Assembly (NCBI GenBank): GCA_965204745.1
Contig: OZ242010.1
Coordinates: 512,001-576,000 of the forward strand
Direction of reading: 5' to 3'
DNA length: 64,000 bases
Source: Candidatus Latescibacterota bacterium
Lineage (GTDB): Bacteria; Latescibacterota; UBA2968
The position numbers were made by a program, and so were the translations under genes. The notes under the pieces were generated by a model. It saw only the letters and a list, made by a program, of their open reading frames with translations. It was not told the DNA's origin and searched no databases. Within the stretch, counting starts at the first letter, position 1, and the number at the start of each line of letters is the position of its first letter. Positions 8,939 to 47,412 of the stretch are shown here, piece after piece.

Positions 8939-8952
8939 GGCTTAAACCGCGT

Positions 8953-9501
8953 TCAAATTTTGTTCACGACATCGCCCACCCGTATCGCGCCCGGGCAGAT
9001 GACCTTGGCATTGATCCCGCGCAACTGGAGCTGTTTGCCCACCGGGGAATTGACGAATTGCAGCGCGTCCAGTCCAAAACGGGCCGCGAATTTTTTACAT
9101 CCGGTATGGGGCTGGTCCGTGACTTCGATCACGGCCTCGCCCAAGCGCAACCGGGTGCCCGGCGGCACATTCTCCGCGCTCAAATCGAGGTCGATGTACA
9201 ACTGATCTCCGGCCAGTGCCCAGCGGTCCTTCTGTTGCGCCAATAGGGCGATCACGCGGCTGTTCATGACATTGAGTTGCATGTCCGGATGAGCCGACCC
9301 ATCTGCGGTTCGAGAACTGCCGCGGGCCTTATAGTTGTCGCCCACGAGTCCTTCGTCCAAGTCGAGCATCCCAACGTCCAAAACCTCCCGCGCCTCGACC
9401 TGCGGCCGGCGCACGATCAACGCCAACACCCCTGCCTCCGCGGGCGATTGCCGAATCGCGTCCAACCCCGCCTCCAACTGTTCCATCGTCAAATGCGCCA
9501 T
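8953..9501 (-). CDS. MOSC domain protein
   Basis: GLVGDN, AGDQLYIDLDLS, PHTGCKKF, RGINAKV. Confidence 0.85.
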   Translation of the reverse strand: MAHLTMEQLEAGLDAIRQSPAEAGVLALIVRRPQVEAREVLDVGMLDLDEGLVGDNYKARGSSRTADGSAHPDMQLNVMNSRVIALLAQQKDRWALAGDQLYIDLDLSAENVPPGTRLRLGEAVIEVTDQPHTGCKKFAARFGLDALQFVNSPVGKQLQLRGINAKVICPGAIRVGDVVNKI

Positions 9502-11367: not shown

Positions 11368-12680
11368 GGCGCGACCTCCGGTTTCGATTCTTCGGGCATG
11401 CGAATATAGTGCCCGCGCACGGCCCCATCAGCGCGAACAGAGGACAGGCGACCACTCTCAAAGCGCAAGAGAAGTTCATCGCCGGAGACCGTCACATTAT
11501 CGCTGTCCTGCGCGATGCGCGTGCAATGGGCTTCGTCAAAAAGGGCCATCTGCGACAACGCGCCCTCAAAAAACCACAGCACACATCGCTTGCCCCCCAA
11601 GCGGCTTTTGGACGAGTTGTCTCGGGCAACATAAGAACCGGTACACCCCCCGGACAAAATCAGACTGTCCGCTTTCCCGTCCCGATAGGCCAGCCTGAGA
11701 TCGCTGCCAGCCAGCGCGGCCCGCTCTCGATCCCGAAGATCGAGTTGCACCTTGCCCCAGGCGTGAACGCGCTGCGGCGCATCGTCCCGAAAGACGATCC
11801 GAGCAGAATCCGCCTGGATGGTTTGCGACCGCGACGCGCTATCGGCAAACGCATAGATGCGCGTGCTATCGAACAAAGCCAACGCGCCGATAGTTTGATC
11901 GGCCAGCTCCAGCCGCATCTCTGTCCCCCGTGCAAAAATGGAATCGCGTTGCTCGGCATCCGTCCAACGCATCGCGGGATTGCCATAGAGAACGATGGCG
12001 GAATCCGCGTACGCGCCGGCCATGGCCTCTCCCCGCATATCGCCCTGCTGCAAGATGAGGTTGCCGTGAAAAACGAGTTCGGCGCCGCGCTCGGCAAAGG
12101 CGATAGAATCCGCCCGCGCTTCGAGGGTATCGCCACCGATCACCCGCGCTCGTGTATGGCCCTGCAACTGGCCCTGCTCTCGCCTCAACTCGTAGCGCAA
12201 GGTGGATGCGGTCAACCGCCGATCTTCGGGCAAGTGGAGCGCGACTTTGCCCTCGGCAATGAGGATTTCCTCCTCGCGCAAAAACCGCACCATGCGCGCG
12301 CCGAGTTCGCGCTGGCCATCCCGAAAAAAGACGCGCCCGAGAAACGTGGCCCGTCCCTTGCGATCTTCGTACACGAGCGTATCGGCGCGGATCTCGCGCG
12401 CCGTGTCTTTGTAACTCACGTTAAAAACAAAATGATAAATGGCGTCTTCCACGCGCACATGCGCGGAATCGGCTTTGACGCTCACGTTTTGCAAACTGTC
12501 TGTGTACGCGACCCGCCCGCGGTAATTGCGCTGGGTTTGGTCGTCTGTGAGCAGGGTTTCCACCCAATCTGCGCTGAGCGTCTGATCGGCATGCGCGGTT
12601 GTGCAGGTCAATACAAACAGAACTCCGAGAAAGCCCCGGAGTTCTGGTCGCGCAACGAGATGGTGTCCGATAATTTTCAC
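11364..12680 (-). CDS. Long LptA/OstA-like beta-jellyroll protein
   Basis: Between lptC and lptB; repeated ADS/DTL...G.V beta motifs; probable GTG start overlapping the lptC stop. Confidence 0.75.
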   Translation of the reverse strand: MKIIGHHLVARPELRGFLGVLFVLTCTTAHADQTLSADWVETLLTDDQTQRNYRGRVAYTDSLQNVSVKADSAHVRVEDAIYHFVFNVSYKDTAREIRADTLVYEDRKGRATFLGRVFFRDGQRELGARMVRFLREEEILIAEGKVALHLPEDRRLTASTLRYELRREQGQLQGHTRARVIGGDTLEARADSIAFAERGAELVFHGNLILQQGDMRGEAMAGAYADSAIVLYGNPAMRWTDAEQRDSIFARGTEMRLELADQTIGALALFDSTRIYAFADSASRSQTIQADSARIVFRDDAPQRVHAWGKVQLDLRDRERAALAGSDLRLAYRDGKADSLILSGGCTGSYVARDNSSKSRLGGKRCVLWFFEGALSQMALFDEAHCTRIAQDSDNVTVSGDELLLRFESGRLSSVRADGAVRGHYIRMPEESKPEVAP

Positions 12681-13189
12681 GGGTTTTTTCGCCTGATCTG
12701 CGTCTGCACGAAGTTGAGGGTCCACTGCTTCAAATCGGATGCGGCATTAAAACCGACCCCGGTCTCTACGCCATCGGGCCGGAAAATGGTCACATGCCCG
12801 TCGCCGGTAATGCGGTCTTCCTCCCGCTGCCAGCGCAGGGAATCGGTTTGCAACGAGGTGCTGTCTCGCGCCATGACGAGGACGGACCCAAAGACCTTCA
12901 TATCGTCGCCCGCCGCGTTGATTTCGCCCCGCTCCGCGTGCAGGATGGAAACCGTATCGCCATCGGAATCGAAAAACGCGACCCGCACCCCTTTGGAAAA
13001 TTGCGCGGGCTCATCCTCTGTCGCCTGCTGAAAATGACCCGCCTGAACCCGGGCGCGTGCTCTGCCCCGATCCGTCACCTGCGTGCTCCAGCCCCACATT
13101 TCCCGCTTGGCCGGCGCCTCAGCTGCGGCGCGTTGCGCGCGATCCGCAGGGGCGCAAGCGCACAGGGCACACAGCAGCACCTCAAGCAT
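12677..13189 (-). CDS. lptC: LPS export protein LptC
   Basis: GVRVAFFD, LQTDSLRW, G.GF...DL motifs; lipobox-like ALCAC; synteny. Confidence 0.85.
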   Translation of the reverse strand: MLEVLLCALCACAPADRAQRAAAEAPAKREMWGWSTQVTDRGRARARVQAGHFQQATEDEPAQFSKGVRVAFFDSDGDTVSILHAERGEINAAGDDMKVFGSVLVMARDSTSLQTDSLRWQREEDRITGDGHVTIFRPDGVETGVGFNAASDLKQWTLNFVQTQIRRKNP

Positions 13190-16937: not shown

Positions 16938-17333
16938 AACGCGATTCCAAAAATGACCCCTTCCTCGCGGGGCGGGATCCAGTGACTTTTGTCTTTTTTT
17001 GTCCGCCAAAAGATACGAGAAGGGGGTAGGGGGTAGGTAAAACAGCCTCTTAGAGATGCGAGGGGCGTTCGGTATAAGTCCATCTGAACGGGGCATCCGA
17101 ATGGGCGTAAGAGAAAAATTTGATTCGTTGGCGTGGGCGCGCGGAAAGCCCCGGCTCGTAGATTTCAATGGCCGGGCGATTGCGCCACATCACGAGCACG
17201 AGTTCGGGATCGAGGTCTATCCGCTGCGAGATCAACTTGAACATCAAATAGGCACTTGCCATAAATTTGGTCATCGCGCTCTCGTAAGAATGGATTGGGC
17301 TATCGCCACAGTTTCAGCACTTTGCGATTGGGG

Positions 17334-35369: not shown

Positions 35370-36017
35370 TCAGTCCGAATCAGATTTTTGGCGTGCGCCT
35401 TTCTCAACAATCGAATTAAAAAAAATATTTGCGAACATCATTCCTAAAAATAAAACGTTCAACGCAGATAGAATAGCAGTCGAAAGCCTTATATGAGGCG
35501 CACTCAACATCCATAAGCCGTGTAACACGGCAACAAAAAAGATAAAAATCGCGCTCTTCCAATACCGAAACCCCAACAGCGTGCCGCAATTTTTACAAGG
35601 CCATGTTTGACAAAAAAGCGTATTCCCCCTATGGCGCAACCCAACGAGATGCCCACACTTGGGACACGCAGAAATGTTTTTCATAACTCTTGGTGTATAT
35701 TCGGTAGCCGACTTCTCAACAATTAAAAAAAGAAAAATGCTCACTAAGAGATCGAAAAAAATAATGCTTGCGACAAATAGACCCATCTGGAAAGGCGTTA
35801 AGGGCCTAAGCAAAAAATACAAGAATGCGGCACACACAAGGAGCAAAAGGTTCAAAATCAGGCGTTGCCGAGGATTAACTTCCAATAGAGCACCACAATT
35901 TTTACAAGGCCAGTGACGACCAAAAATGCTACCAGCCCTCCATTTGTGCCACCCCCATCCCCCAACGGAATGTCCACACTTTGGACATGTGTAAATGCTT
36001 TTTATTTTTCTCGGCAT
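35370..36017 (-). CDS. Tandem CxxC-x~20-CxxC zinc-ribbon membrane protein (two repeats)
   Basis: CPKCGH...WPCKNCG plus 2 TMs and IVEK, twice; GGGAG RBS before MPRKIKS. Confidence 0.75.
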   Translation of the reverse strand: MPRKIKSIYTCPKCGHSVGGWGWHKWRAGSIFGRHWPCKNCGALLEVNPRQRLILNLLLLVCAAFLYFLLRPLTPFQMGLFVASIIFFDLLVSIFLFLIVEKSATEYTPRVMKNISACPKCGHLVGLRHRGNTLFCQTWPCKNCGTLLGFRYWKSAIFIFFVAVLHGLWMLSAPHIRLSTAILSALNVLFLGMMFANIFFNSIVEKGARQKSDSD

Positions 36018-36036
36018 ATCGTTGACTCCCAAACGC

Positions 36037-36250
36037 TCAGGCTGAATCAGATTTTTGACGGGTGCCTTTCTCAACAATCGGAATGACAAAAATTCTCGCT
36101 AAGTGGACCAAAAAGAAAGAGCCTATAATAAATAGATTCACATTCAAAATAGTTCTCCGAGGCTCAATCCATAAGTAGAGCAATATGGCAAACATAGGGA
36201 TCAAAATCAGGCTCTGCCAGTAGCTAAATCCCAAAATCGTACCGCAACTT
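36037..36250 (-). pseudogene. 5'-truncated third CxxC-membrane repeat
   Basis: CGTILGFSYWQS...IVEKGTRQKSDSA* matches CGTLLGFRYWKS...IVEKGARQKSDSD*; homology begins immediately after the ACP stop. Confidence 0.8.
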
Positions 36251-36514
36251 TCAGGTGGCAGTCGCGTCTTCAAGCGCGGTGCGGACATAATCGGTCATTG
36301 TTTTCACGCTATCGAACAGTTCCACACGCAAATCTTCATCGGGCACTTCAAGGCCAAATTCTTCTTCCAAGCCCACAATGATCTCGATCGTCGCCATTGA
36401 ATTGAGGCCTAAACCACCGCCAAAAAGCGCGTCTTCAGCACCGATTTCTTCTGGCGTCACTTCAAGAGACAAGGAGCGAATAATGACCTGCTTGACCCGA
36501 TGTTCAATGGACAT
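36251..36514 (-). CDS. Acyl carrier protein
   Basis: 87 aa, acidic; LFGGGLGLNS39 (DS>NS), LEEEFG, FDSVKTM; AGGAGG RBS. Confidence 0.88.
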   Translation of the reverse strand: MSIEHRVKQVIIRSLSLEVTPEEIGAEDALFGGGLGLNSMATIEIIVGLEEEFGLEVPDEDLRVELFDSVKTMTDYVRTALEDATAT

Positions 36515-36522
36515 AAGCCCTC

Positions 36523-38424
36523 CTATGGGATTGCTGCCGCTGGCTGAGCCTCTGAGAAATACTGAATCGCGGTTTCAACGAGACGCCGTTGACCCGTCTC
36601 GGACAGAATCTCTATCGCGGGCAATTGAAACGTGTCTTCCAATGTGTTCAGGTGGCGATCAATCTCGTGTCGTGCCATCTTTTTCGGGGTGATCATACTG
36701 CGCCCATACGCGGTTCGGATGTGCTTTTTGCGGTTGCCCATCGCCAGCAACAGGGTCGGGGCTTTGCACACGGCGCGTATCCCATCTATCGTATCGCGGA
36801 TGTACGCTGTCGCATCGATGCTGTTGACCACCAAAACGCAAGCATCCGGCTTTACGCCGAGCAAAAACGCCAGCGACGACAAACAATGCGTGCTGTGTTC
36901 TTGGACATCATAAGGTATCGTGCCCGATTGAGACCCCGTCAGGATGATGTCGGGCCGGCGGTGCTGGCAAATCTCGCGCATCTTGTAATCCAAATACGGC
37001 GCGTAGTGTTGAAAGGGAAGTTTGAGCGGAGAAGCATAGCCCATTGGAAAGGCGGCATCCATGCCAAATAAGCGCGCATGGTGCTCGGTGCCGATTTGCC
37101 CAACCTCATAGCCTTCTTGTTGCAAGCGCGCCCGCAACGCGAGTTGCAGGGTGAACTTGCCCTGTTGCGAACTCGTGCCCATCACCGCGAGCACGGGCAC
37201 ATCCACGGGCGGGAGTGCCTTGAAATTTTGAAGTGCCTGTGTGCGTTCTGTTTTGGAAATGTGCGGATAGGCCAAGCGCAGGCCCTTTTTGTCCGCCGTG
37301 TCATACAGATCGCCGTAAGCGGTTGGGTCAAGGGCTTGCAAACTGAACACATGGCAACCCGCATCCAGCGCCAATGCGATGTGTTCTCTGAGCAAATCGC
37401 GCTTGCGAACGCGGGAGAGTTGATCCACATAGCCCAAGATGAGCGTATCCGCATCTGCCATTGCGCGGCGGATATTTGGGCTGATACGCAGATTGGCAAC
37501 CGGCGCGTCGATCACTTTGCCCGCATCTTTGCCGCCCATCCCCTTGCCGAGGGGATCGCCGACGCCCACGATCTCAAAATCGAGCATCTCGCGATAGCGC
37601 ACCAAGCTGTGCATCTCTTTGTTGTACGGATACAGCGCGGCTTTTTTAATCCATGAATAATCCGCTTGAAAAACGTTTTGAGAGGCCGGGCGACTGGTCT
37701 TTGCCGTATTCTGGTTCTTCGGCATTCTTATGGCTTTTTCCTGTAACAATAACCGAATTTTTTGAACAGAAGAATTGGGGTGCTGGTTCAGCAAGCGCGC
37801 CACAATGCCCGCGATATGCGGCGCGGCAAAGCTATTGCCGCCGGTCATGATGTATTTTCCGTTGAGCCAGCAAACGCGCTGTTCATCGCCACGCGCCACG
37901 CATTCGATGTGCTGATCCTTGCGATAGTAAAATCCGTCTCGGTCATAAATCGCACCCCCCGTCACCCCAAGCACTTCGGGAAACACCGCCGGGTAACTCT
38001 CGCCCCCGTCATTGCTCTCTGCCGCCACGAGAATTATGCCCGCCTCGACCGCCTTGCGACACACGGCTTGAAGGGATCGCTTAAACGTCACATCCGTTGT
38101 GCCCAAGCTCAAATTCACGACATTCATCGCGTTGTCAATACACCACTGAATCGCCGCGATCAACGCCCGGCCATCTGCCATCAACGAGTCGTCAAAAATC
38201 CGCACGCCATACAACGCCGCGTCCGGTGCCTTCTTCCGAATAATCCCCGCGCACGCCGTGCCGTGCCCCGCACAATCGACATAATCATCTGACACCATTA
38301 CCTCGCCACCTTCACCCATCCGAATCCGAACCCCACCCGCAATATCCCCCACCCCCGAATGCGATGCGTCTATGCCACTGTCGATAATGGCAACCCGGAT
38401 GCGAGTGTGATTTGCTTTACCCAT
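36523..38424 (-). CDS. Cytoplasmic S8 subtilase fused to a DUF1611/TIGR04066-like P-loop domain
   Basis: Catalytic triad IIDSG / HGTAC / GNSFAAP; no signal peptide; C-terminal half AALYPYNKE, VMGTSSQQGKFTLQL, GSQSG, KPDACVLVVN. Confidence 0.85.
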   Translation of the reverse strand: MGKANHTRIRVAIIDSGIDASHSGVGDIAGGVRIRMGEGGEVMVSDDYVDCAGHGTACAGIIRKKAPDAALYGVRIFDDSLMADGRALIAAIQWCIDNAMNVVNLSLGTTDVTFKRSLQAVCRKAVEAGIILVAAESNDGGESYPAVFPEVLGVTGGAIYDRDGFYYRKDQHIECVARGDEQRVCWLNGKYIMTGGNSFAAPHIAGIVARLLNQHPNSSVQKIRLLLQEKAIRMPKNQNTAKTSRPASQNVFQADYSWIKKAALYPYNKEMHSLVRYREMLDFEIVGVGDPLGKGMGGKDAGKVIDAPVANLRISPNIRRAMADADTLILGYVDQLSRVRKRDLLREHIALALDAGCHVFSLQALDPTAYGDLYDTADKKGLRLAYPHISKTERTQALQNFKALPPVDVPVLAVMGTSSQQGKFTLQLALRARLQQEGYEVGQIGTEHHARLFGMDAAFPMGYASPLKLPFQHYAPYLDYKMREICQHRRPDIILTGSQSGTIPYDVQEHSTHCLSSLAFLLGVKPDACVLVVNSIDATAYIRDTIDGIRAVCKAPTLLLAMGNRKKHIRTAYGRSMITPKKMARHEIDRHLNTLEDTFQLPAIEILSETGQRRLVETAIQYFSEAQPAAAIP

Positions 38425-38436
38425 GACATTCTCCAA

Positions 38437-39141
38437 CTAATGCTGTGAATCCATAATTTTGCATTCCACATCAATGATTTCCTTTTTTTTCCAATCAACC
38501 AATACGCGCAATGTGTCATCAAACTTTCTTGGCTTCCAGCGATATTCAAAGACACTTAAGCCATTCACCTCAACAGCATCATACCCATAACTGCGTTCGT
38601 TCTGGAGGGTGCGAATATAATCATGGCGGGCAAAATAGGGTTGTGCATCTATATGCTTCACAATAGCTGGCAGATAATTTTCCATCAAAAGATTGGTGCC
38701 TGGTATTGCACGAAATCCATATCGTTTGTAGAGTGGAATCCCTTTTCGATTGAATGACCAAGTCGTAATTTCGATCCGTTTGCATTCAGATTCACAGGTG
38801 GTTCTCAAACACCTATCTGCCAGTGCAAGCCCAAAAACCCCGCGTTTCTGAAAGTCGGGATGGGTTTCTACATGAGAAAAAATGATCACATCTGGCTCAG
38901 ATTTCTTTTGGCTTATCTTCATGGATGAAATGATGCGGTGATTTCGCTTGAGTAAATAGATGACCGCGTGCTCTAAGTTGCTCAAATTCTCAATGATTTC
39001 TTCACAACTGGGTAGGCATTCAGGGTTTGGCTGTCTTTGAAACGCATTGGAAGACAAGGACCAATGTCGTGTCTGAATACCTCTTAGAAAGATAGCATAG
39101 TGGTGTAAATCGTTTTCGCTTAAGGGCTGAATGTGATACAT
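38437..39141 (-). CDS. GNAT-family acyltransferase
   Basis: Motif A VETHPDFQKRG, motif B TWSFNRKGIPLYKRYGF. Confidence 0.85.
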   Translation of the reverse strand: MYHIQPLSENDLHHYAIFLRGIQTRHWSLSSNAFQRQPNPECLPSCEEIIENLSNLEHAVIYLLKRNHRIISSMKISQKKSEPDVIIFSHVETHPDFQKRGVFGLALADRCLRTTCESECKRIEITTWSFNRKGIPLYKRYGFRAIPGTNLLMENYLPAIVKHIDAQPYFARHDYIRTLQNERSYGYDAVEVNGLSVFEYRWKPRKFDDTLRVLVDWKKKEIIDVECKIMDSQH

Positions 39142-39168
39142 TTTTGTTCTCTTTGAGAAATTGAAAAA

Positions 39169-39908
39169 TCACTTGCTGACGATATAGCCGCCATACAGAA
39201 ATCCAATTAACGGTGCAATAGTGACATTGAAATTTATAGCCCCATGAAAAACCATACATAACAAAAGACTGCGTTTAGATTCGTAGAGATAAGTCAAGAA
39301 ACAGGAAAGTACAGCTAATAATATCAGGTGATGAAAAAATATGGACCAATAACCACCCGTAACCAAAAAATATAATTGTTCATGAAGACCGACGAAGACC
39401 AAAACAGTAATAATATAAGCCCTTACTCTTCCATATCTTGTCCTGATTGCCCCAAAAAATAAACCCCGAAAAAGAAGTTCTTCTCGAACTGGAGTCAATA
39501 TAACAAGTCCGAGAAGATCAAATAGACACTCAATAACAAAGCCTGGAGGCTGCGAACCAAAACCTACTGAAAAATACAAGGGTAAATTATATGCTGTTAG
39601 ACCTATACCTACATATATCCACAAGAAGAACACTTTTTTTGGGGAACTCCATAATATATCATCTTCCGCAACCCAAATTGTCCGAATCGGTAAAAAAAAG
39701 AAAAAATTAATAGAAGATTTATTCCTTCTACAACAACTTGCATAATCACATTAGATGACTGAACAATCCACCACACAATTTTGTTTTCTAGAAAAACAAA
39801 AAAACCCCAGATCAAACCTTTTGCCAAAGGCACATGGAGTGTTAAGGGCCAGTTCTCCTGCATAGATTCTACTTTGATAGATTCTTCCATTGAGGATCCT
39901 TGGGCCAT
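39169..39908 (-). pseudogene. CPBP (CAAX/Abi) intramembrane metalloprotease split by a frameshift at an A7 tract
   Basis: REELLFRG, FVGLH, HGAIN; adding one A at 39634-39640 joins the two ORFs into 246 aa. Confidence 0.8.
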
Positions 39909-39927
39909 ATAAGCACTCCAATTCAGT

Positions 39928-40721
39928 TTAATCCGGTTTGTTGCTCAACATCTTAAAACTTTCGTCCATCAATAGAAATTCGAAAGCAGGCTCTTTGTAA
40001 ATTTTTTCTTTTAAAATGGGATCCCACCGGAGTGCTCTTTTTAAGGAATAAAGAGTTAGTTCTTTATTTTTTATACCCCCATATACACGAGATCGGTTAT
40101 ACCATGCATTACCATTTTGGGGATTTAGTTCAAGTGACCGATCTAACGCAACGATGGCTTTGGGTAATCTGCCTAACTCAAGAAGCAGAGCTCCTTTATT
40201 GTTCCAGGCATCAGAATATTTGGTGTCGAGTTCTAAAGCACGATCAAACGACTGGAGTGCTTTTTCCAATTCGCCCAGTTTCATCAAAACAGCACCTCGA
40301 TTATTCCATAATATAGATGCTCGAGGTAGTATTTGAAGTGCTTGATCATAAATTTCAAGTGCCGTTTTATATTGACCCAAACGTATGAGAATATCCCCTC
40401 TGTTTATCCAATAGGTCATATTTTCAGGATCGGCCTCTGTTGCACGTATATACATTTCAAGTGCGTCTTGATTTTTTTTTGCTGTTTGTAAATCAAACCA
40501 CATCTGAACCAGGCAACCGCATTTTGGGGATTTAACTCAACTGTTTGACGATAGACTTTCAGAGCTTCTTCAAATGCACGAATCCGCCAAAACTTATTTC
40601 CCTTCTCAAACAAAATTTGGGATTGTTCAAGAGATTTATACGGTTGAAAAATAAAATTCGTAAAATAATAGAAAACAACGGCATATACAAAGGGAAGGCA
40701 CAATAGCAAAAACTTTTTCAT
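39928..40721 (-). pseudogene. Membrane-anchored TPR protein split by a frameshift at an A9 tract
   Basis: N-terminal TM; TPRs (WINRG, WNNRG, WNNKG, WYNRS); adding one A at 40472-40480 gives KQQKK-NQDALEMY and 264 aa. Confidence 0.8.
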
Positions 40722-40949
40722 CGCAACATTCTCCTATCCATACGGGCAAAAAAATAAAATATTTATTTAGTATGAGATCAGCGCGCTGAGAATGTTGAAA
40801 TGTATTGAAAAGAGCCTTCGGGGGCTGAGAAAAGTGTTCACAGGTTTTCAAGTTACCCAAAGAAAGGGGCAACGAAATACAGTTTGGGCAAAAACTCGTG
40901 AACAATTCACAATGCGCGGATCGTCAAAATTTAACGTTACCCTCCCAGA

Positions 40950-41366
40950 TTAATGGGTACGTTTTCTGCCGAGATTATCATACTCTTCCTGATTAGGCAC
41001 AATATAACCCGGAGGAGGATGAACACTGCTTTCTACCTCTCCACCTCGAGCTATAGCTGTCTCTATAGTCACCACTGTATTAGTGAAGGGAATTGGGAAA
41101 CTGTAAGTCAGGAATAGACTATCATCTGTGACACCAATTGGCGATCTGGCTTCGATTCTACCGGTTGTACGTCCACCTGGAAAATGCAAGGTACCTTCAA
41201 ATCCCCTAGGTGTCATCCCATGCGACACACCAGTCGAAGTTGAGTCAGCATTGACAGCCTTCTCAGCATCAGCCTGTGCATCAGGGTCTTCTTCCTCGCC
41301 AGAATAGGCAATAACACTTTCCAGATTGCCCATCCGTTGAGGTTTGTACAACTTTCTGATTTCCAT
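40950..41366 (-). CDS. Putative precursor protein A (138 aa)
   Basis: AAAGGAG RBS; MEIRKLYKPQRMGNLESVIAYSGEEED..., leader shared with precursor B. Confidence 0.7.
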   Translation of the reverse strand: MEIRKLYKPQRMGNLESVIAYSGEEEDPDAQADAEKAVNADSTSTGVSHGMTPRGFEGTLHFPGGRTTGRIEARSPIGVTDDSLFLTYSFPIPFTNTVVTIETAIARGGEVESSVHPPPGYIVPNQEEYDNLGRKRTH

Positions 41367-41421
41367 TGTGTTTCTCCTTTCGAAAAGAATGAATGTACAG
41401 CCCCCGAAGGCCAAATTCATA

Positions 41422-43137
41422 TCATATACTCGCTGTTTTTTTATGCAAATGTGCATACACCCCATCTTGCATAGCCAACTGCTCGTGCGTGCCCTGCTCT
41501 GCGATCTGTCCCTCATCCAGAACCACAATTTCATCTGCGGTTTGAATCGTTGACAGTCGATGCGCGATGATCAGCGTGGTTCTGCCTTGTCGCACGGTTT
41601 TTAACGCCTCTTGGATGTGATACTCCGATTCCATATCCAAGGCGGCAGTGGGTTCGTCCAAAATCAGAATCGGCGTGTCCATCAACAGCACACGCGCCAG
41701 TGCAACGCGCTGTTTCTGCCCCTCCGACATCTGTGCTCCCTGTTCGCCCACCAATGTTTCATAGCCCTCCGGCAATGACGCAATGAAGTCGTGAATGTAC
41801 GCGGCCCGCGTCGCGTCTTGAACATCTCGCATGGGTATCTCGTGCCCAAAGGTCAAGTTGTCTAAAATACTGCCTTGAAACAAGGTACTGCCCTGCATCG
41901 CAAACCCCACCTGTTGCCGAATGGATTTCAAGCGGTAGTTCCGAATATCGTACCCATCGAGCGACACATAGCCCTCTTGCGGATCGTAGAATCGCGGGAT
42001 CAATTTGGCAAGCGTCGATTTGCCTGAGCCGCTTCTGCCGACCAATGCAATGGTCGTTTGTGCCGGGATATGCAGGTCAATATGGCGCAACACGGGTTGC
42101 CCTTCATGATACGCAAAGCTCACATTGTGAAAACCGATCTCGCCTCGCACTTGCGGTAACGCGGGCATGTCGGGACGATCCTGAATTTCTGGCCTCAACT
42201 CATAGACTTCAAAAAAGCGATTGATGCGAACCAATGCCATTTCAACTTGTCCTACCAGGCCGATGAGATTGCCGATGGGACCGTAGAGATAGCCCACATA
42301 ACCCGAAAATGCCATATAACTGCCCAGGGAAAGATTGCCGTTTAGAACCTGCGTCCACCCATACCAGCCATAAGCCAACGTGCCCGCTGTTTTCACCAGC
42401 GATCCCACAAAATTGAAGCCGCCACTTAAATGCGTCGATCTGATCCGCAGTTTCGACACATCGAGAAAGATGCCTCTGATCTTGTGATAAAACGCGGCTT
42501 CCAACCCTAGGGCTTGCACGGTTCGGATACCCGAAAGCGATTCGTAGGACTTGGCCGAGGACTCAGCCGATGCTTCGGTCACTTTTTTGGAAATTCTGCT
42601 GAGGTACTTTTTTGAAACCATAATCAACACCGTATCAAATGGCAAGACCGCCAAACTGATCAAAGCCAGTTTCCAATTGATGTAGAGCAAAATAGGCGGG
42701 AAAATGAGCAACTGGAGCGTGTTCATAATCAGGCTGTTCACCATCCCGATGGTGCTGTTGACCGAACTGTCCATATCCCTAAATCGAGATAGGATTTCGC
42801 CTGTCTGCCGGTTGTCAAAAAAGCTGAAATCCAGTGATTGCACATGAGAATAGAAGCGCGATTTGAAATCCAACCCCATGTTGACGCCGACATAACGCGC
42901 AAAATACGTGCTCAACAATCCCGTAAATCCCAACCCCGTCGAAAGCACGGCCCCCAAAATCAGAATGAAGGTCAGGAGCGTGTGGTCTTTGTGGGGATAC
43001 ACATCATCGATCAACACTTTGGTAATGTATGGCCCTGGGATTTGCAAGAACATGACCATGATGCCCACGAGGAACGATTGAAAGATAAACCGCCAATACG
43101 GCCGGAGCATTTTGATGATCTTAAATATCTGACGCAT
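41422..43137 (-). CDS. ABC exporter (TM plus NBD), no C39 peptidase domain
   Basis: 571 aa starting directly with the TM domain; GRSGSGKST, MSEGQKQR, LILDEPT, IAHRLST. Confidence 0.93.
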   Translation of the reverse strand: MRQIFKIIKMLRPYWRFIFQSFLVGIMVMFLQIPGPYITKVLIDDVYPHKDHTLLTFILILGAVLSTGLGFTGLLSTYFARYVGVNMGLDFKSRFYSHVQSLDFSFFDNRQTGEILSRFRDMDSSVNSTIGMVNSLIMNTLQLLIFPPILLYINWKLALISLAVLPFDTVLIMVSKKYLSRISKKVTEASAESSAKSYESLSGIRTVQALGLEAAFYHKIRGIFLDVSKLRIRSTHLSGGFNFVGSLVKTAGTLAYGWYGWTQVLNGNLSLGSYMAFSGYVGYLYGPIGNLIGLVGQVEMALVRINRFFEVYELRPEIQDRPDMPALPQVRGEIGFHNVSFAYHEGQPVLRHIDLHIPAQTTIALVGRSGSGKSTLAKLIPRFYDPQEGYVSLDGYDIRNYRLKSIRQQVGFAMQGSTLFQGSILDNLTFGHEIPMRDVQDATRAAYIHDFIASLPEGYETLVGEQGAQMSEGQKQRVALARVLLMDTPILILDEPTAALDMESEYHIQEALKTVRQGRTTLIIAHRLSTIQTADEIVVLDEGQIAEQGTHEQLAMQDGVYAHLHKKTASI

Positions 43138-43351
43138 GGAATCGTTCTAAAAAAAAGGTATTCGACAAATGCTTGAAGCACGTCATCTGTCATGGCTGAC
43201 GTTGTGCTTATGCGTTGGTGGCATGGTTTCAAGTCTGCCTCGTAGTGCTTTGATACAGGACCTGCAAGACCTGCTTGCACATGTTGCACGCGCAGGCAAG
43301 AAGCAGACAGGCGCGACCACAACTTAGTCATCCACCAGCGAAAAATGATAA

Positions 43352-43401
43352 TGGGTGTTCAACGCTACCCGCTTGAAACTTCGGTAAGCATTGAACACCC
43401 A
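43352..43401 (-). terminator. Stem-loop downstream of precursor B
   Basis: TGGGTGTTCAA...TTGAACACCCA perfect 11-bp arms with partial inner pairing. Confidence 0.45.
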
Positions 43402-43483
43402 ATGATCAGAGGTCATCTATTGCATTCTGCGAGATCGGGCGTCAATGATCAAACGGAAATTTCACCTGATCTTTTGACACCGC

Positions 43484-43903
43484 CTACTTATCCTTCTTCT
43501 TCTCCTCCTCTTCTTCTTCCCCTGTTTCGATTTCCGGTGCCCGGGGCGGACTTTGGTCGTGGCAACTCCTATAGCAAGATGTGTATGTTCTCGCTACTGC
43601 CATGACTCCTCCAGCAGCCAAGGCAGATCGCCAATTCCTATTGTTTGCGTATACTCCTCCAGCAACAGCAGCAGAATAAAGCAAAACACTCTCGGCAGCC
43701 TCGTAATGTGCCTCGTCAATTGCGGCCTGCCTTGGGTCCACATCCGTTGGAATCTGAGGCTCAACAGAAGTTGAATCCGGAGAAGTTGTATCCGGTTCGG
43801 CAATTTCAAATTCCAAACCCTTGTCTCCATCTCCAGAATATGCCATAACACTATGAGTGCTATCGGCATACGGAGATGGCGAGATTTTTCTGAGAGATCT
43901 CAT
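43484..43903 (-). CDS. Putative precursor protein B (139 aa)
   Basis: AAAGGAG RBS; MRSLRKISPSPYADSTHSVMAYSGDGD...; hydrophobic Gly/Ala helices, CYRSCH, acidic/basic tail. Confidence 0.7.
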   Translation of the reverse strand: MRSLRKISPSPYADSTHSVMAYSGDGDKGLEFEIAEPDTTSPDSTSVEPQIPTDVDPRQAAIDEAHYEAAESVLLYSAAVAGGVYANNRNWRSALAAGGVMAVARTYTSCYRSCHDQSPPRAPEIETGEEEEEEKKKDK

Positions 43904-43941
43904 GGTTTGCTCCTTTCTTGAAAAGTGATGACGACCTCTGA

Positions 43942-44682
43942 TCACAACAATAAAAATTCACTATAGTGATATGCCACTATTGTGACTAAATTACCGATGG
44001 CGTGAAACACAAAGCTGGCAGTGAGTGAATTTGTGCGTTCTAACAAGAATGCTGTCACCACACCAACCAAAAATACGAAGATAAGACCCGTAAGATCAAT
44101 CATCCAAACATGGAAAAATGAAAAAATAAAGGCTGAAATCAAAGTTGATATAATACTATCATTTTGTTTGCGTAAGGTTCTATACAACAGACCGCGAAAG
44201 CACAATTCTTCGTCAAATGGACCTAAAAGACCCGTAACTATTATCTGGCCATAAAATATCGCATCAGAAGAATATTTGGGGGGATTACCAAAATTTATGT
44301 CTATCCCGGACTCTAAAATAGACACTATAGCACCGAAGACGAAGGCATAAATGATATATCGAAACTGAGTCGCAGGATATATTGCTCCCCAAATTAACTT
44401 GATCGATAAATCCACTTTCTTACATTGCCAGATAAGGAATGCAAGAAAGGCAAGCGTCAAAACTGGAGGAAGAGATATTGCCCCAATATGCCCCATATCC
44501 TGGAATGTTAAACCCCATCCATTGGCGTAATTAAAATATGCTATCAACAAGCCAGACAGTGCAATAACAACCAAACCAATTACACCGTACAAAACTAACC
44601 AAATAATTACTCTTTTGATAGACCATGGGAGTTGTGGTTGCAGGACATCATCAACTTCCAAAGTATCTTTGTTGTCTTGCAT
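43942..44682 (-). CDS. CPBP (CAAX/Abi) intramembrane metalloprotease
   Basis: DEELCFRG, FSFFH, HAIGN; multiple TMs; AT-rich. Confidence 0.88.
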   Translation of the reverse strand: MQDNKDTLEVDDVLQPQLPWSIKRVIIWLVLYGVIGLVVIALSGLLIAYFNYANGWGLTFQDMGHIGAISLPPVLTLAFLAFLIWQCKKVDLSIKLIWGAIYPATQFRYIIYAFVFGAIVSILESGIDINFGNPPKYSSDAIFYGQIIVTGLLGPFDEELCFRGLLYRTLRKQNDSIISTLISAFIFSFFHVWMIDLTGLIFVFLVGVVTAFLLERTNSLTASFVFHAIGNLVTIVAYHYSEFLLL

Positions 44683-44743
44683 TTTTGTTCTCCCATGAAC
44701 TGCTATGGCAATTGTACATTAAACCCTATCATGCTTTGCTTCG

Positions 44744-44813
44744 TTATAGGCTCTGCTCGTGCCGCACCCTGAGCATTTTGATGATCTTGAATATCTGACG
44801 CATTGAATCATTC
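44744..44813 (-). pseudogene. Duplicated 5' stub of the ABC exporter gene
   Basis: MRQIFKIIKMLRVRHEQSL*; 44771-44813 matches 43105-43147 at 40/43 nt. Confidence 0.85.
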
Positions 44814-46104
44814 AGTTTCTGGCCTGTACATTTTCGGGCTGTTCTTCCAAGCGATAAATCTCAGGACGCCCTATTTTGCCCACTGTCTTGAGGAACTTTC
44901 GCCACAACAAGTTGACGATTGGGCCGCGCTCGGTCACGATTTTGGCGTCAACGCCCATGCCGTACGCGAGTGAATAAACGCTTTTGCCATCCGATACATG
45001 TGGGTCTATCACGCGCATGGTCACGGGATAAGTAGCATCTGCGCCACCACTCGGCAACAGACCCGCACCAAGGGGTGTCGCGGCTTCGGGCTTTCGCGGC
45101 ACGTCGGTCACCTCGCCCTCAAACACCTTGTATTCCATGTGTGGGAATGCGTTCACATACAACCGCACCCGCTGTCCCGCTTTCACCTTGGGAATATCCA
45201 CTTCTTGAATCATCACCCGCGCTTGCCAGCCATCCAACGCGGCCAATTCAATTACGGCTTCACCTGCCAAAATGCGGTCGCCCACGCGCTTCTCCAAATC
45301 GCGCGTCAACACGGTTCCCGAAACAGAGGCGCGAATCTGCATCTGTTCCAACTGCGTTTTGAGCAAGCGATAGCTAACCCGTAATTTTTCATCCATCTGC
45401 GCCATCGTTTTCAGTTCCTGTTTGCGATTGTCCAAGGCGGCCAACCTGCGCTTTGCACGCTCAATTTCTACTTTTGCACCCGCTACCCGCATCTGCTGTA
45501 ACCGAACCGGGATCAACGTATCCACAGGGGGACGCGCACTGCCATCTATGCGAAAGGGCAGGTATTTGTGGTAAATCTGATACTCTTTGCGAATCTGATC
45601 CAACTGTAACTGCGCGGTCTGATGCGCGACTTCTGCCCGTTCAATCTCGGTTTCCAAAACCGCGCGCTCGCGTTGCAACTCGACGGTCAACGCCTCGCGA
45701 CGACTTTGGTTCATCGCCCGTTCCTGTTCGAGTTGCGCCAATTCCGTGCGTAAATCCGCGTCATCCAACGTCAGCATCAAATCCCCTTGTTCAACCGCTT
45801 GCCCGTGTTGCACATGGACGGTTTGGATCAAGCCAGCGCGTTGGGCTTTTACTTCACAACGCGCACTGGGTTGCACGCGCCCTCGACCTTCAACCGTGAT
45901 TTCCATGCCCAAATGCCACCCCAACAGCCCGATGAGTGCGACCATGCTTCCCACAACACAGAGAATAATGAGCAAGAAATAGCGCACAAACCGAAAACCC
46001 ATCCCCGAAGTTGCGTGTGCTTCCGGACTCTGTGCGTGTGCAGACACCTCTCGATGTTGCGTGTGGTAGCCATTGCCCACTATCACCTGTTCCCCAAGTG
46101 CCAT
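44812..46104 (-). CDS. HlyD-family (type I secretion) membrane fusion protein
   Basis: TM, GRGRVQP, VKAQRAG..V.HGQ.V..GD, long coiled coil, IRASVSGTV, NAFPHMEY, YGM. Confidence 0.9.
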   Translation of the reverse strand: MALGEQVIVGNGYHTQHREVSAHAQSPEAHATSGMGFRFVRYFLLIILCVVGSMVALIGLLGWHLGMEITVEGRGRVQPSARCEVKAQRAGLIQTVHVQHGQAVEQGDLMLTLDDADLRTELAQLEQERAMNQSRREALTVELQRERAVLETEIERAEVAHQTAQLQLDQIRKEYQIYHKYLPFRIDGSARPPVDTLIPVRLQQMRVAGAKVEIERAKRRLAALDNRKQELKTMAQMDEKLRVSYRLLKTQLEQMQIRASVSGTVLTRDLEKRVGDRILAGEAVIELAALDGWQARVMIQEVDIPKVKAGQRVRLYVNAFPHMEYKVFEGEVTDVPRKPEAATPLGAGLLPSGGADATYPVTMRVIDPHVSDGKSVYSLAYGMGVDAKIVTERGPIVNLLWRKFLKTVGKIGRPEIYRLEEQPENVQARN

Positions 46105-46191
46105 AACCCATGATCCTATATGCCGATCTGCATATACTCAGGTTGTTGATGGCGAACGCCAAAATAGTTTCATCTCTATAAACATGCGTTA

Positions 46192-46218
46192 CATTCAGCG
46201 GTTTATCGCCGCTGAATG
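46192..46218. terminator. Hairpin between pcp and the island (terminator or operator)
   Basis: CATTCAGCGG-TTTATCG-CCGCTGAATG. Confidence 0.45.
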
Positions 46219-46257
46219 GGGCTTTTGAAACTCCTTTGATTTCGCAAGGGGAGTGCG

Positions 46258-46842
46258 TCATGTTAAACTCTCTACGACAGCCCTGATTCCGGCCGTCACA
46301 CCTGTTTGAATCGTTTCCAACGCCATGCTCGGTTGGGACGCGCCCGCGAGTTCTGGCGTGGGTGGTACGTGGATAAATCCCACAGGCGTATCGATCCCCT
46401 TTTCCGCGAGCAGATGCAATGTGGAATACAAGATGTGATTGCACAGGAACGTGCCCGCCGAATACGTCAATCGCGCAGGCACATTGGCCTCGCGCATTCG
46501 CCGAACCATCAACCGAGTCGGCAGGGTGGAGAAATAGGCATCGGGTCCCCGGTCAACAATGGGATAATCCACATCGTCTATCACTTTTAGGTTGATGCCA
46601 ACGCGCTCGACATGCAGCGCATTCGCCGAACCGTGCAAGCCCAAAGACACCACAGCCGCGGGTTTGTACTCGGCAATGAGCGGGGCGACTTTGGCAATAT
46701 CATCGCCGTGACTCACCGGCAACACGGTTGAAACGATTTCGCATCCCCGGATCAAAGCACCATCCAACGCCTCGGCCACAACGCCCGATGGATTGCTTGA
46801 CCACTCAGCCCAGGGTTCAAAACCCGTCAGTAAAATTTTCAT
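46258..46842 (-). CDS. pcp: Pyroglutamyl-peptidase I
   Basis: MKILLTGFEP, NPS, VERVGIN, SAGTFLCN, GFIHVP. Confidence 0.93.
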   Translation of the reverse strand: MKILLTGFEPWAEWSSNPSGVVAEALDGALIRGCEIVSTVLPVSHGDDIAKVAPLIAEYKPAAVVSLGLHGSANALHVERVGINLKVIDDVDYPIVDRGPDAYFSTLPTRLMVRRMREANVPARLTYSAGTFLCNHILYSTLHLLAEKGIDTPVGFIHVPPTPELAGASQPSMALETIQTGVTAGIRAVVESLT

Positions 46843-47081
46843 CAAATAGCCCCTTGATATCCCGTCCCTTTCGTGCGGAACGGTTGTCATTAAGAGTAGA
46901 AAGCGAGTGGGAAGCAAGCCGCGACCAATCGCCGCCGACTCATCCATTACCGAATCGCCCCTTAGAACGTGTCTTAAAACAAACGATAGATGCCCCCTCC
47001 TCCGGCTCTTCTCCGCATGGATTCAACGCTTTATTCGCATTGTCAGGAACAAGCTAGCAGCGCGGGGGGTGTGTCACCTGA

Positions 47082-47412
47082 TCACGCCTCCAGCACCATC
47101 TGCAACAGCGCCATGCGGATATAAACGCCGTTGTGCGCTTGGCGGAAGTACGCGGCGCGCGGGTCTTTGTCCACCGCCGGATCGATCTCATCCACCCGGG
47201 GCAAGGGGTGCATCACGATGGCGTCGGCTGACAACGCGACCATCGCCGCCGGGTCGATGATGTATTTTCCCCGAACCGCTTCGTAGTCCGCGATGCGGTC
47301 ACCGAACCGCTCTCGCTGAATGCGCGTTTGGTACACCACATCCACGTCGGCCATGACCTTCATCAGGTCTTCTTCTTCTACAAACGCGACCCCGTGTTCT
47401 GCCAAATACGCA
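47082..47412 (-). pseudogene. pyrB: C-terminal fragment of aspartate carbamoyltransferase
   Basis: [36 protein letters not shown]; upstream is AT-rich junction sequence and then the LysR stop; carbamoyl-phosphate domain absent. Confidence 0.85.

Follow-up and report, generated by a model that had tools for sequence, protein, structure and literature searches.

We describe a locus in the genome of a Candidatus Latescibacterota bacterium (GenBank assembly GCA_965204745.1, contig OZ242010.1) at which two genes, here called precursors A and B, encode small proteins that begin with the same leader and continue into unrelated cores. They lie within a stretch of 64,000 nucleotides (nt) that was analyzed as a whole (contig positions 512001-576000; the window in what follows, to which all coordinates refer). 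A and B are real, conserved genes, and their common leader is far beyond chance. We think it probable, at roughly 0.6, that they encode polymorphic bacteriocin-like secreted proteins. An S8 protease would probably cut after a tyrosine at the end of the leader, an ABC transporter with an HlyD adaptor would export the product, and CPBP proteins would provide immunity.

A common leader on unrelated cores

The two precursors and their leaders are placed as follows.

40950-41366, minus strand: precursor A, 138 aa, comprising leader, acidic linker and a Thr/Pro-rich core with an invariant C-terminal His
43484-43903, minus strand: precursor B, 139 aa, comprising leader, acidic linker and a helical Gly/Ala-rich core ending Y..C...CH.QSPP
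41304-41366, minus strand: leader of A, residues 1-21, ending at the invariant Tyr of the alignments; putative cut position
43838-43903, minus strand: leader of B, residues 1-22, ending at the invariant Tyr of the alignments (proposed P1); putative cut position

Both reading frames are exactly those put forward in a preliminary description of the sequence. The ATG of each gene lies 6-7 nt after GAAAGGAG, and both starts have a Shine-Dalgarno sequence, with an AGGAG spacing of 7 nt in A and 6 nt in B. A mechanical list of open reading frames (ORFs) masks the two genes by taking upstream starts, which lengthen A to 194 aa and B to 153 aa. The homologues are nearly all called at about 125-144 aa, starting at the same Met or at Met12, and AGGAG or GGAGG is found 5-8 nt before the ATG in 24/24 precursor candidates. 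The motif AYSG occupies residues 20-23 in A and 21-24 in B. It is followed by the acidic stretch and then by DSTS as had been described, with 17 intervening residues in both proteins.

Direct comparison of A with B by BLASTP gives a weak match (8/22 identities, E 0.027), a value that taken alone would fit a chance resemblance between two spurious ORFs. We therefore used their relatives for the comparison, 11 for A and 12 for B, nearly all of similar length and with the leader retained; the exception is P0017, a relative of B that is called without it. Both families retain V[IL]AYS[GS]EEE[DE], and one relative of B (P0018) bears the complete A-type linker AYSGEEEDPDELADAEDAVNADS. Alignment of the two leader profiles with hhalign gave a probability of 97.3% and E 2e-11 over 30 columns, with the likeness covering about 40 N-terminal residues. 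The core profiles gave a probability of 0.0 and E 0.87, and controls of leader against core gave 0.2-1.1%, in agreement with the complete divergence after the leader that had been noted. Mean pairwise identity within the families is 0.81 (A) and 0.87 (B) over residues 1-25, falling to 0.50 and 0.48 in the remainder. In a six-frame translation of the whole genome the motif [ST]V.AY[SA]G occurs at two sites, those of A and B, and the longer pattern proposed earlier likewise matches at the two precursors alone. Chance resemblance is refuted by the families of homologues conserved with their leader across genomes, by the spread of the leader profile and by the profile comparison. With the motif unique in the genome and a Shine-Dalgarno sequence at every start, we give it practically no weight.

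The leader is not confined to these two cores. A leader of the A/B type is also found on cargo C in genome G082 and, in P0029 and P0031, on cargo E, which has a C..CH.DAHQ motif. More small proteins at related loci begin with looser leaders of the form MxKLxK..[VI]x[AL]Y and continue into acidic residues. All the variants keep the residues before the proposed cut (VIAY, VMAY, IEAY, VEAY, VQLY), and those after AY vary (SG, PG, SS, GC, GD, EE, HD). Neither Pfam nor NCBIfam has a model that matches the leader. One further candidate, P0034, a protein of 224 aa with three repeats of LRKTSKAPYMDKESVFAF and a leader-profile E value of 1.7e-4, was judged a chance match.

The leader profile selects two ORFs in the host genome, a single contig of 5.48 Mb with a GC content of 56.5%. 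Across the phylum it matches 11/168 genomes at E≤0.01, nine of them strongly (E≤5e-15). These nine, the host included, all fall among the 21 genomes of the host genus, and the other 147 genomes of the phylum gave no convincing match. The two weak matches (G062 and G070, E about 0.003) were rejected as they lie inside frames of more than 600 aa, and the match at locus L016 belongs to a long unrelated protein. A search of 1.84 billion cluster representatives with a wider leader profile yields only 14 proteins at E≤0.001. A strict DNA pattern for VIAYSGEEE, run over one genome per species, gave five loci, of which two are real, both in Ca. Latescibacterota; L002 and L005 read as chance matches, and L003 has no protein-motif match in the scan.

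Sponge metagenomes contain the host or a strain nearly identical to it, with the stretch almost unchanged; a contig of 3332 nt aligns with 41402-44137 with eight differences. The parts of the published literature available to us on DUF1611, DgcN, TIGR04066, CLI_3235 and Latescibacteria with bacteriocins or sponge RiPPs (peptides made on the ribosome and modified after translation) contain no description of the leader or the locus; the cluster tables of PMC12993501 or PMC9426513 could list it as 'RiPP-like'.

A and B have no relative in Pfam, NCBIfam or PDB. Profiles of the cargos gave no match below E 0.5 in PDB, and searches of Pfam at E≤10 returned noise alone, with no toxin or bacteriocin family among the matches. 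The best hint is a non-significant match of a relative of B to MccV (E 0.082, 13.9 bits against a cut-off of 27). A contains no cysteine and B contains two. Cargos B and C have hydrophobic stretches rich in Gly and Ala, with one or other of these at 8-11 of 19 residues. The absence of a Sec signal noted earlier is borne out, with no Sec-type hydrophobic stretch in the first 40 residues by Kyte-Doolittle hydropathy windows (maximal 10-residue mean 0.67 for A and -0.01 for B). Nor do the cargos carry at their C terminus a sorting signal of the motif-helix-basic type. There is no double-glycine motif either, again as described, the leaders ending in AY plus variable residues and the exporter lacking a C39 domain.

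Several unrelated cargos end in a pair of cysteines with a histidine: CY.SCHDQSPP in B (P0001 residues 107-120), C(M/I)(T/S)CH.DAHQ in cargo E (P0029, P0031), QCAGCH in a B-like ORF (L030 11169-11390, minus strand) and GYCPQCLPH in the tails of some A proteins (L014, L018). CxxCH is the attachment motif of haem c. A disulfide or a metal site is an equally possible role for these endings.

The locus and its exchangeable cassettes

In the direction of transcription the gene order is HlyD, CPBP2, B, ABC, A, TPR, CPBP1, GNAT, S8::TIGR04066/DUF1611 and ACP (acyl carrier protein). In addition to the precursors the genes are as follows, all on the minus strand.

44812-46104: HlyD-family periplasmic adaptor, first gene of the locus (Pfam HlyD_3, 9.9e-16; NCBIfam type_I_hlyD, 4.5e-25, below cut-off)
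43942-44682: CPBP2, CPBP/Rce1-like intramembrane protease (Pfam Rce1-like, 4.4e-18; EExxxR, FxxxH and HxxxN motifs)
41422-43137: ABC exporter half-transporter, PCAT-like (Pfam ABC_membrane, 2.1e-41; ABC_tran, 5.3e-32)
39928-40721: membrane-anchored TPR protein of cassette A (strong TPR-family matches), here in two ORFs, 40416-40721 and 39928-40503
39169-39908: CPBP1, CPBP protease of cassette A (Pfam Rce1-like, 6.9e-16), split into 39609-39908 and 39169-39633
38437-39141: GNAT acetyltransferase-like protein (Pfam Acetyltransf_1, 1.6e-05)
36523-38436: S8 protease fused to a TIGR04066/DUF1611 P-loop domain (S8 residues 1 to about 245, P-loop domain about 264-628)
36251-36514: ACP, last gene of the locus (generic ACP models, 8e-15 and weaker, all below cut-offs)

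HlyD orthologues of 71-75% identity head the related loci. The best bacterial PDB match of the ABC exporter is PCAT1 (4ry2, residues 159-725, 1.3e-97). This match begins at residue 159, indicating that the exporter lacks the C39 domain, and no Peptidase_C39 was found on it by a Pfam scan. Two genes of cassette A are interrupted. The TPR frame shifts at a run of nine A (40472-40480) and is a single ORF of 230 aa in L019; CPBP1 shifts at a run of seven A (39634-39640) and is a single ORF in L019 and L022. These could be homopolymer errors of assembly or real breaks, possibly prone to slippage. A scan of 36000-47200 for promoters and terminators gave 13 promoter-like sites (15.9 expected) and four terminator-like sites (12.5 expected).

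The partnership of these genes is fixed. In 14 orthologous loci the order is HlyD-ABC-[cassettes]-(GNAT)-S8DUF-ACP; the window deviates by placing the B cassette between HlyD and ABC. An S8-DUF1611 orthologue of about 80% identity lies within 10 kb of the leader match in 9/9 genomes with a strong match, with an ACP adjoining, so that the proximity of the leader to these genes stands. A precursor is present in 14/15 loci of this 80% class, the window included, and the remaining locus (L030) is cut by a contig end, leaving the tail of a B-like ORF alone visible. At orthologous loci missed by the profile a small ORF with a looser leader follows ABC (for example LRKSPKKVYVNSCIEAYGCE, MKKLVKRMLKPYHLELGCVEAYGDN and MQLCKKPVHSYGRYKQAVQLYMPG), and paralogous loci have ORFs of the same kind (such as MQKLVKRKMHYETIMPVEAYEEE and MKALTKPKKFQAMSRIYGYELE). 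A loose leader pattern matches 12 sites in the 5.48-Mb genome, two of them real; it also matches 12 sites in 180 kb of paralogous loci, where nine start with M[QKV]K..K like the precursors.

Each cargo keeps its own CPBP protein. Cargo A is found with TPR and CPBP1 in 6/6 loci, where CPBP1 comes after A and TPR. Cargo B is found with CPBP2 in 4/4 (the window, L021, L023 and L024), where CPBP2 lies directly upstream of B. Cargo C is paired with a third CPBP in 3/3 loci, and cargo D with a fourth CPBP and TPR in 2/2. The 5' end of GNAT forms the downstream border of the cassettes. Loci with cassette A or B carry GNAT, as does L030; it is missing from L025, L027, L028, L029, L031 and L032.

The junctions of these cassettes are preserved in the DNA. 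The precursor gene of G082 is a chimera. Its nt 19-475 are 91.7% identical to the 3' end of ABC, the spacer and about the first 41 codons of A in the window; nt 457-717 match cargo C of G088 with 83.1% identity. The two parts overlap by about 19 nt, which places the junction at codons 36-41, and at A the recombining unit extends beyond the leader to about codon 41 (41244). In G083 a 3' fragment of ABC precedes A, and there are two orphan TPR-CPBP1 modules, each ending in a 5' fragment of GNAT (locus L023). Metagenomic contigs bridge further arrangements. In one from a sponge the 3' end of ABC runs into diverged CPBP2-like sequence where the window has A, and in contigs from three runs of one sponge study the start of the S8 gene is joined to a B-type leader with a cargo unlike those of the window. 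A contig joint between 43122 and 46210 was set aside, having only 26 letters on one side, and the lack of metagenomic cover over 38.5-41.1 kb was given no weight. The chimera, the orphan modules and the bridging contigs show that the moving unit is the cargo plus its putative immunity gene, and the fixed frame is the exporter and leader, with GNAT or S8. This strengthens the earlier proposal of a shared leader carrying protein-sized polymorphic cargo, since the leader is found also on cargos C and E and recombines with the cargos as DNA modules.

One syntenic locus has decayed. L025 (G082:C1:914000-933999) lies between genes for pyroglutamyl peptidase and SecDF, with ABC reduced to its last 261 residues, a split S8-DUF1611 gene, and an ORF of 268 aa between cargo C and its CPBP.

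CPBP/Abi proteins are known for their role in bacteriocin immunity, the role that the bacteriocin-like reading assigns to them. The catalytic motifs of the CPBP proteins are kept, and this would also suit a different reading, in which the cargos are secreted proteins other than toxins, for instance factors by which a sponge symbiont interacts with its host or matrix, that leave the cell by way of this leader and exporter, and the CPBP proteins are processing proteases. The nearest NCBIfam models of the CPBP proteins, all below cut-offs, are the sorting-type proteases MrtJ and MrtS. No cargo resembles a known toxin, and the occurrence in sponge metagenomes also counts in favor of this reading. 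Yet the one-to-one pairing of cargo and CPBP, the orphan CPBP modules, the patchy distribution (9/21 genomes) and a GC content of 0.42-0.48 at the locus against 0.55-0.60 in its flanks are the usual marks of toxin and immunity genes, and the cargos lack a motif-helix-basic sorting signal. On balance we regard the non-toxin reading as rather improbable.

Two neighbors were noted. A gene for pyroglutamyl peptidase I (46258-46947, minus strand) lies directly upstream of HlyD, as it does in G082 (L025 5207-5875), and may be a mere neighbor. Downstream of ACP are two membrane proteins with CxxC..CxxC zinc-ribbon motifs (35370-36089 and 36037-36288, minus strand; TIGR04104-like, 4.5e-10, below cut-off). 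Relatives of these occupy the gap between ABC and S8-DUF1611 at the paralogue loci of about 50% identity L029, L035 and L036. The pair may be the remnant of a second neighboring system or another type of immunity gene.

The S8::TIGR04066 fusion and related systems

The fusion protein matches both the S8 and the DUF1611 models of Pfam. The best named family for the S8 domain is QhpE (NCBIfam NF049966; 4e-46, 157.1 bits, below the cut-off of 165). The C-terminal part matches positions 1-360 of the 361 in TIGR04066 (1.3e-33, 116.5 bits); this is below the cut-off of 200, but the domain is a clear homologue. The S8 domain aligns with mature subtilisin BPN' from residue 24 of the latter onward, and has neither a pro-domain nor a signal peptide. 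Residues D19, H58, S202 and N142 are invariant in 10 S8 paralogues. The DUF1611 part gave no match in PDB below E 0.3.

The host has a single copy of the fusion gene; in the genus paralogues are numerous, with identities of about 80, 60, 50 and 39%. A TGA or TAG flagged in many of them raised the idea of selenocysteine or read-through; this was rejected, as in the five that were translated the stop is a terminal codon inside the match. The P-loop GT..QQGKF(T/S) is kept in 10/11 aligned paralogues, and the phosphopantetheine Ser is invariant in 8/8 ACPs beside S8-DUF1611 paralogues. At L040, where the P-loop is degenerate, no ACP match lies nearby, a lack shared with one other aligned locus. 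The P-loop domain and ACP may serve in leader recognition, in coupling ATP to processing or in acyl transfer. DgcN is an N-acetyltransferase. At a paralogue locus of about 39% identity (L038; listed spans 8250-9071, 12524-12736 and 17085-17282) the ACP is upstream of S8-DUF1611, and there are two Cys-rich precursors of 66-71 aa (MKALTKP..RIYGYE..) and an ORF of 273 aa that is sulfotransferase-like by eye.

The same partners, namely a QhpE-like S8 protease, TIGR04066, an ACP-type protein and an ABC exporter, occur in the CLI_3235/CcpM systems of Firmicutes. A tblastn search of plasmids with the DUF1611 part gave seven records. On pCLOPA01 of Clostridium pasteurianum a CLI_3235 precursor, CcpM, TIGR04066, an ACP-related protein (TIGR04069-type, 60.7 bits against a cut-off of 70) and a QhpE-like S8 protease stand in a row, with an ABC gene nearby; the precursor reads MKLLGKKHVKVMETIEAY and continues into a Cys-rich core. 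The Bacillus albus plasmid NZ_CP040345.1 (L043 2180-7980) encodes ABC, ACP and an S8::TIGR04066 fusion of the same architecture, which scores 88.2 bits against TIGR04066, likewise below the cut-off of 200. Two unannotated precursors of 44 aa (MKKALKKPTKVGKKVEETKVTLYMGE..) have leaders ending TLY. This plasmid also carries an MNIO enzyme (DUF692, BufB/HvfB-like) with a weak ApyI-like partner, and thus the same leader-handling genes are joined there to different tailoring chemistry. According to PMC10731318, a Paenibacillus cluster carries the same gene set.

The leaders too share a layout. Those of the CLI_3235 class and of Latescibacterota have a basic MK.L.KK start and a length of about 18-25 residues, and end [VI]x[AL]Y; with 15 Latescibacterota variants aligned, the likeness is at the level of motifs and is not statistically significant. 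An end-to-end alignment of a Latescibacterota leader with that of C. pasteurianum, both ending EAY, has 7/18 identities (E 0.037). The TIGR04065 model (cut-off 26 bits) did not match any of 12/12 Latescibacterota precursors, ten of them tried at E≤10 and A and B at E≤0.01; the positive control P0035 scored 29.9 bits. In the reverse direction the wider leader profile and a profile of the 15 leaders gave non-significant E values of 8.9-76 for P0035, P0036 and P0037 among 75,825 background ORFs. The link to CLI_3235 therefore rests on layout and gene context. On these grounds the leader is a divergent relative of the little-studied CLI_3235 class and not without precedent. The 'distinct leader class' of the preliminary description holds in so far as no Pfam or NCBIfam model covers it, but its layout and partner genes are those of the Firmicute systems.

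The differences from CLI_3235 are substantial. Its core is Cys-rich and of about 30 residues, whereas the cores here are 90-115 aa and mostly not Cys-rich. Its clusters have the radical SAM enzyme CcpM (TIGR04068), whereas no radical SAM, MNIO or other tailoring enzyme was found among the ORFs scanned at this locus (35.4-49.6 kb). Unlike those systems this locus has an HlyD adaptor, CPBP/TPR cassettes and polymorphic, swapping cargo. What is new here relative to CLI_3235 is thus the lack of a tailoring enzyme, the unrelated protein-sized cargos, the HlyD and CPBP/TPR genes, and cassette swapping.

A further precedent is provided by the qhp system, in which, according to PMC7876137, QhpC loses a leader of 28 residues to QhpE while still in the cytoplasm and is then exported by the ABC transporter QhpF. 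A cytoplasmic subtilisin-like protease that cuts the leader of a small protein before ABC export is what we propose here too; unlike qhp, the protease is fused to a P-loop domain and the cargo is not an enzyme subunit. None of QhpC, the radical SAM enzyme QhpD, the flavoprotein QhpG and the dehydrogenase subunit is among the scanned ORFs of the locus, the search for qhp genes having been confined to these. Double-glycine bacteriocins and microcins likewise combine a short leader, a PCAT-like ABC transporter, an HlyD adaptor, an adjacent immunity gene and a Gly/Ala-rich cargo. They have a GG/GA/GS motif and a C39 domain, whereas here there is neither, and a separate S8 protease takes the place of C39. 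NHLP and Nif11 leaders and polymorphic toxins similarly join a conserved N-terminal module to unrelated C-terminal modules, and polymorphic toxin cassettes have matched immunity genes and orphan cassettes arising from recombination at conserved flanks. The leader sequence, processing enzyme and export route differ from those of the NHLP, Nif11 and polymorphic toxin systems, and the cargo here is a whole small protein, neither a short core as in NHLP and Nif11 nor the tip of a large toxin.

The conservation of the P-loop and ACP raises the possibility that A and B are protein-sized RiPPs, modified before export by, for example, acylation of the new N terminus or of a side chain. ACP would carry the acyl group, and the TIGR04066 P-loop domain, GNAT or both would move it, with the S8 cut as only one step; this overlaps with the bacteriocin-like reading and adds chemistry to it. 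Selidamides are RiPPs that are lipidated by a GNAT enzyme with an ACP. In favor are the constant adjacency of ACP to S8-TIGR04066, the invariant phosphopantetheine Ser, the retention of the P-loop in all aligned paralogues except L040, where the ACP match is missing as well, and the residence of the Firmicute versions of these genes in RiPP clusters with radical SAM (CcpM) or MNIO enzymes. Against it, no such tailoring enzyme is encoded among the scanned ORFs here, the six related loci that lack GNAT still hold precursors, and the cargos have no common modifiable motif. The trio of S8, TIGR04066 and ACP is constant while the tailoring enzymes change, which suggests that it serves the leader and not the core. 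We consider modification of the cargos unlikely.

The motif AYSG calls to mind another class of peptides. The recognition sequence of PatG is AYDG, and AYSG[ED] could be of that type, with the N-terminal peptide as the product, released or cyclized by S8, and the C-terminal part as a follower. The S8 domain does match PatA/PatG weakly (4.9e-09), but it reaches 35.5 bits where the model demands 421, and the residues after AY are not conserved among the leader variants. The S8 domain is shorter than subtilisin and so has no room for a macrocyclase insert. Moreover conservation lies in the N-terminal part of the precursors, and it is the C-terminal part that changes along with the immunity gene; a follower would show the opposite pattern. 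A cyanobactin-like product is thus highly improbable.

A proposed pathway and its meaning

The bacteriocin-like reading can be set out as a sequence of steps. A precursor would consist of a leader of about 21 residues, with a basic start and V-x-A-Y at its end, an acidic linker reaching to about residue 40, and an exchangeable cargo of 90-100 residues. The cytoplasmic S8::TIGR04066 protein would recognize the precursor, probably together with the neighboring ACP. Subtilisins prefer a hydrophobic residue at P4 and an aromatic residue at P1. The most likely cut would be after the invariant Tyr, giving a site of subtilisin type with Val or Ile at P4, Ala or Leu at P2 and Tyr at P1. A cut at this point is favored because the preceding [VI]-x-[AL]-Y is the most conserved part across all leader variants. 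The PCAT-like ABC transporter with its HlyD adaptor would then export the product, and the producer would be protected by the CPBP protease belonging to each cargo, with or without TPR. Cassettes would be exchanged by recombination between two flanks, the conserved 3' end of ABC together with the leader and, opposite it, GNAT or the S8 gene.

Several observations weigh against this scheme. The position of the cut is drawn from the general specificity of subtilisins. The conserved acidic linker and the D[ST]T motif could point to another site or to an additional cut, the latter near D[ST]T or the recombination junction. No cargo matches a toxin or bacteriocin family, the sole hint being that to MccV at E 0.082. 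The P-loop and ACP are strictly conserved, yet they would be idle in plain cutting and export, and so the model is incomplete. The retained protease motifs mean that the CPBP proteins could be maturases instead of immunity proteins. Frameshifts interrupt the two putative immunity genes of cassette A, which is odd beside an intact toxin unless these are homopolymer errors of assembly. Finally, the S8 and TIGR04066 matches both fall below their curated cut-offs.

The locus is a real and well-supported modular leader-cargo system, of which the S8::TIGR04066/ACP kind is known already but barely studied. One leader serves four or more unrelated cargos, which at 60-115 residues exceed the usual peptide core in size. 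We offer tentatively, as a suggestion more likely to fail than to hold, that S8::TIGR04066 and ACP form a machine that reads the leader with indifference to the cargo, does more than proteolysis, and passes proteins of about 100 residues behind a leader of about 40 residues to ABC/HlyD. For instance, a chain just released by the cut might be captured or acylated by the P-loop domain with the phosphopantetheinyl arm of ACP. In that case the products would be protein-sized RiPPs and the leader a portable tag for secretion and modification. Apart from this suggestion, the locus points to a job for the trio of QhpE-like S8, TIGR04066-DUF1611 and ACP, which databases list merely as a 'peptide maturation system' of no known function. 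The leader may also offer a compact secretion tag for diderm bacteria. For the organism itself, the locus would represent bacteriocin-like genes for competition, exchanged as cassettes, in a sponge-associated phylum that is uncultured and whose interactions are little known.

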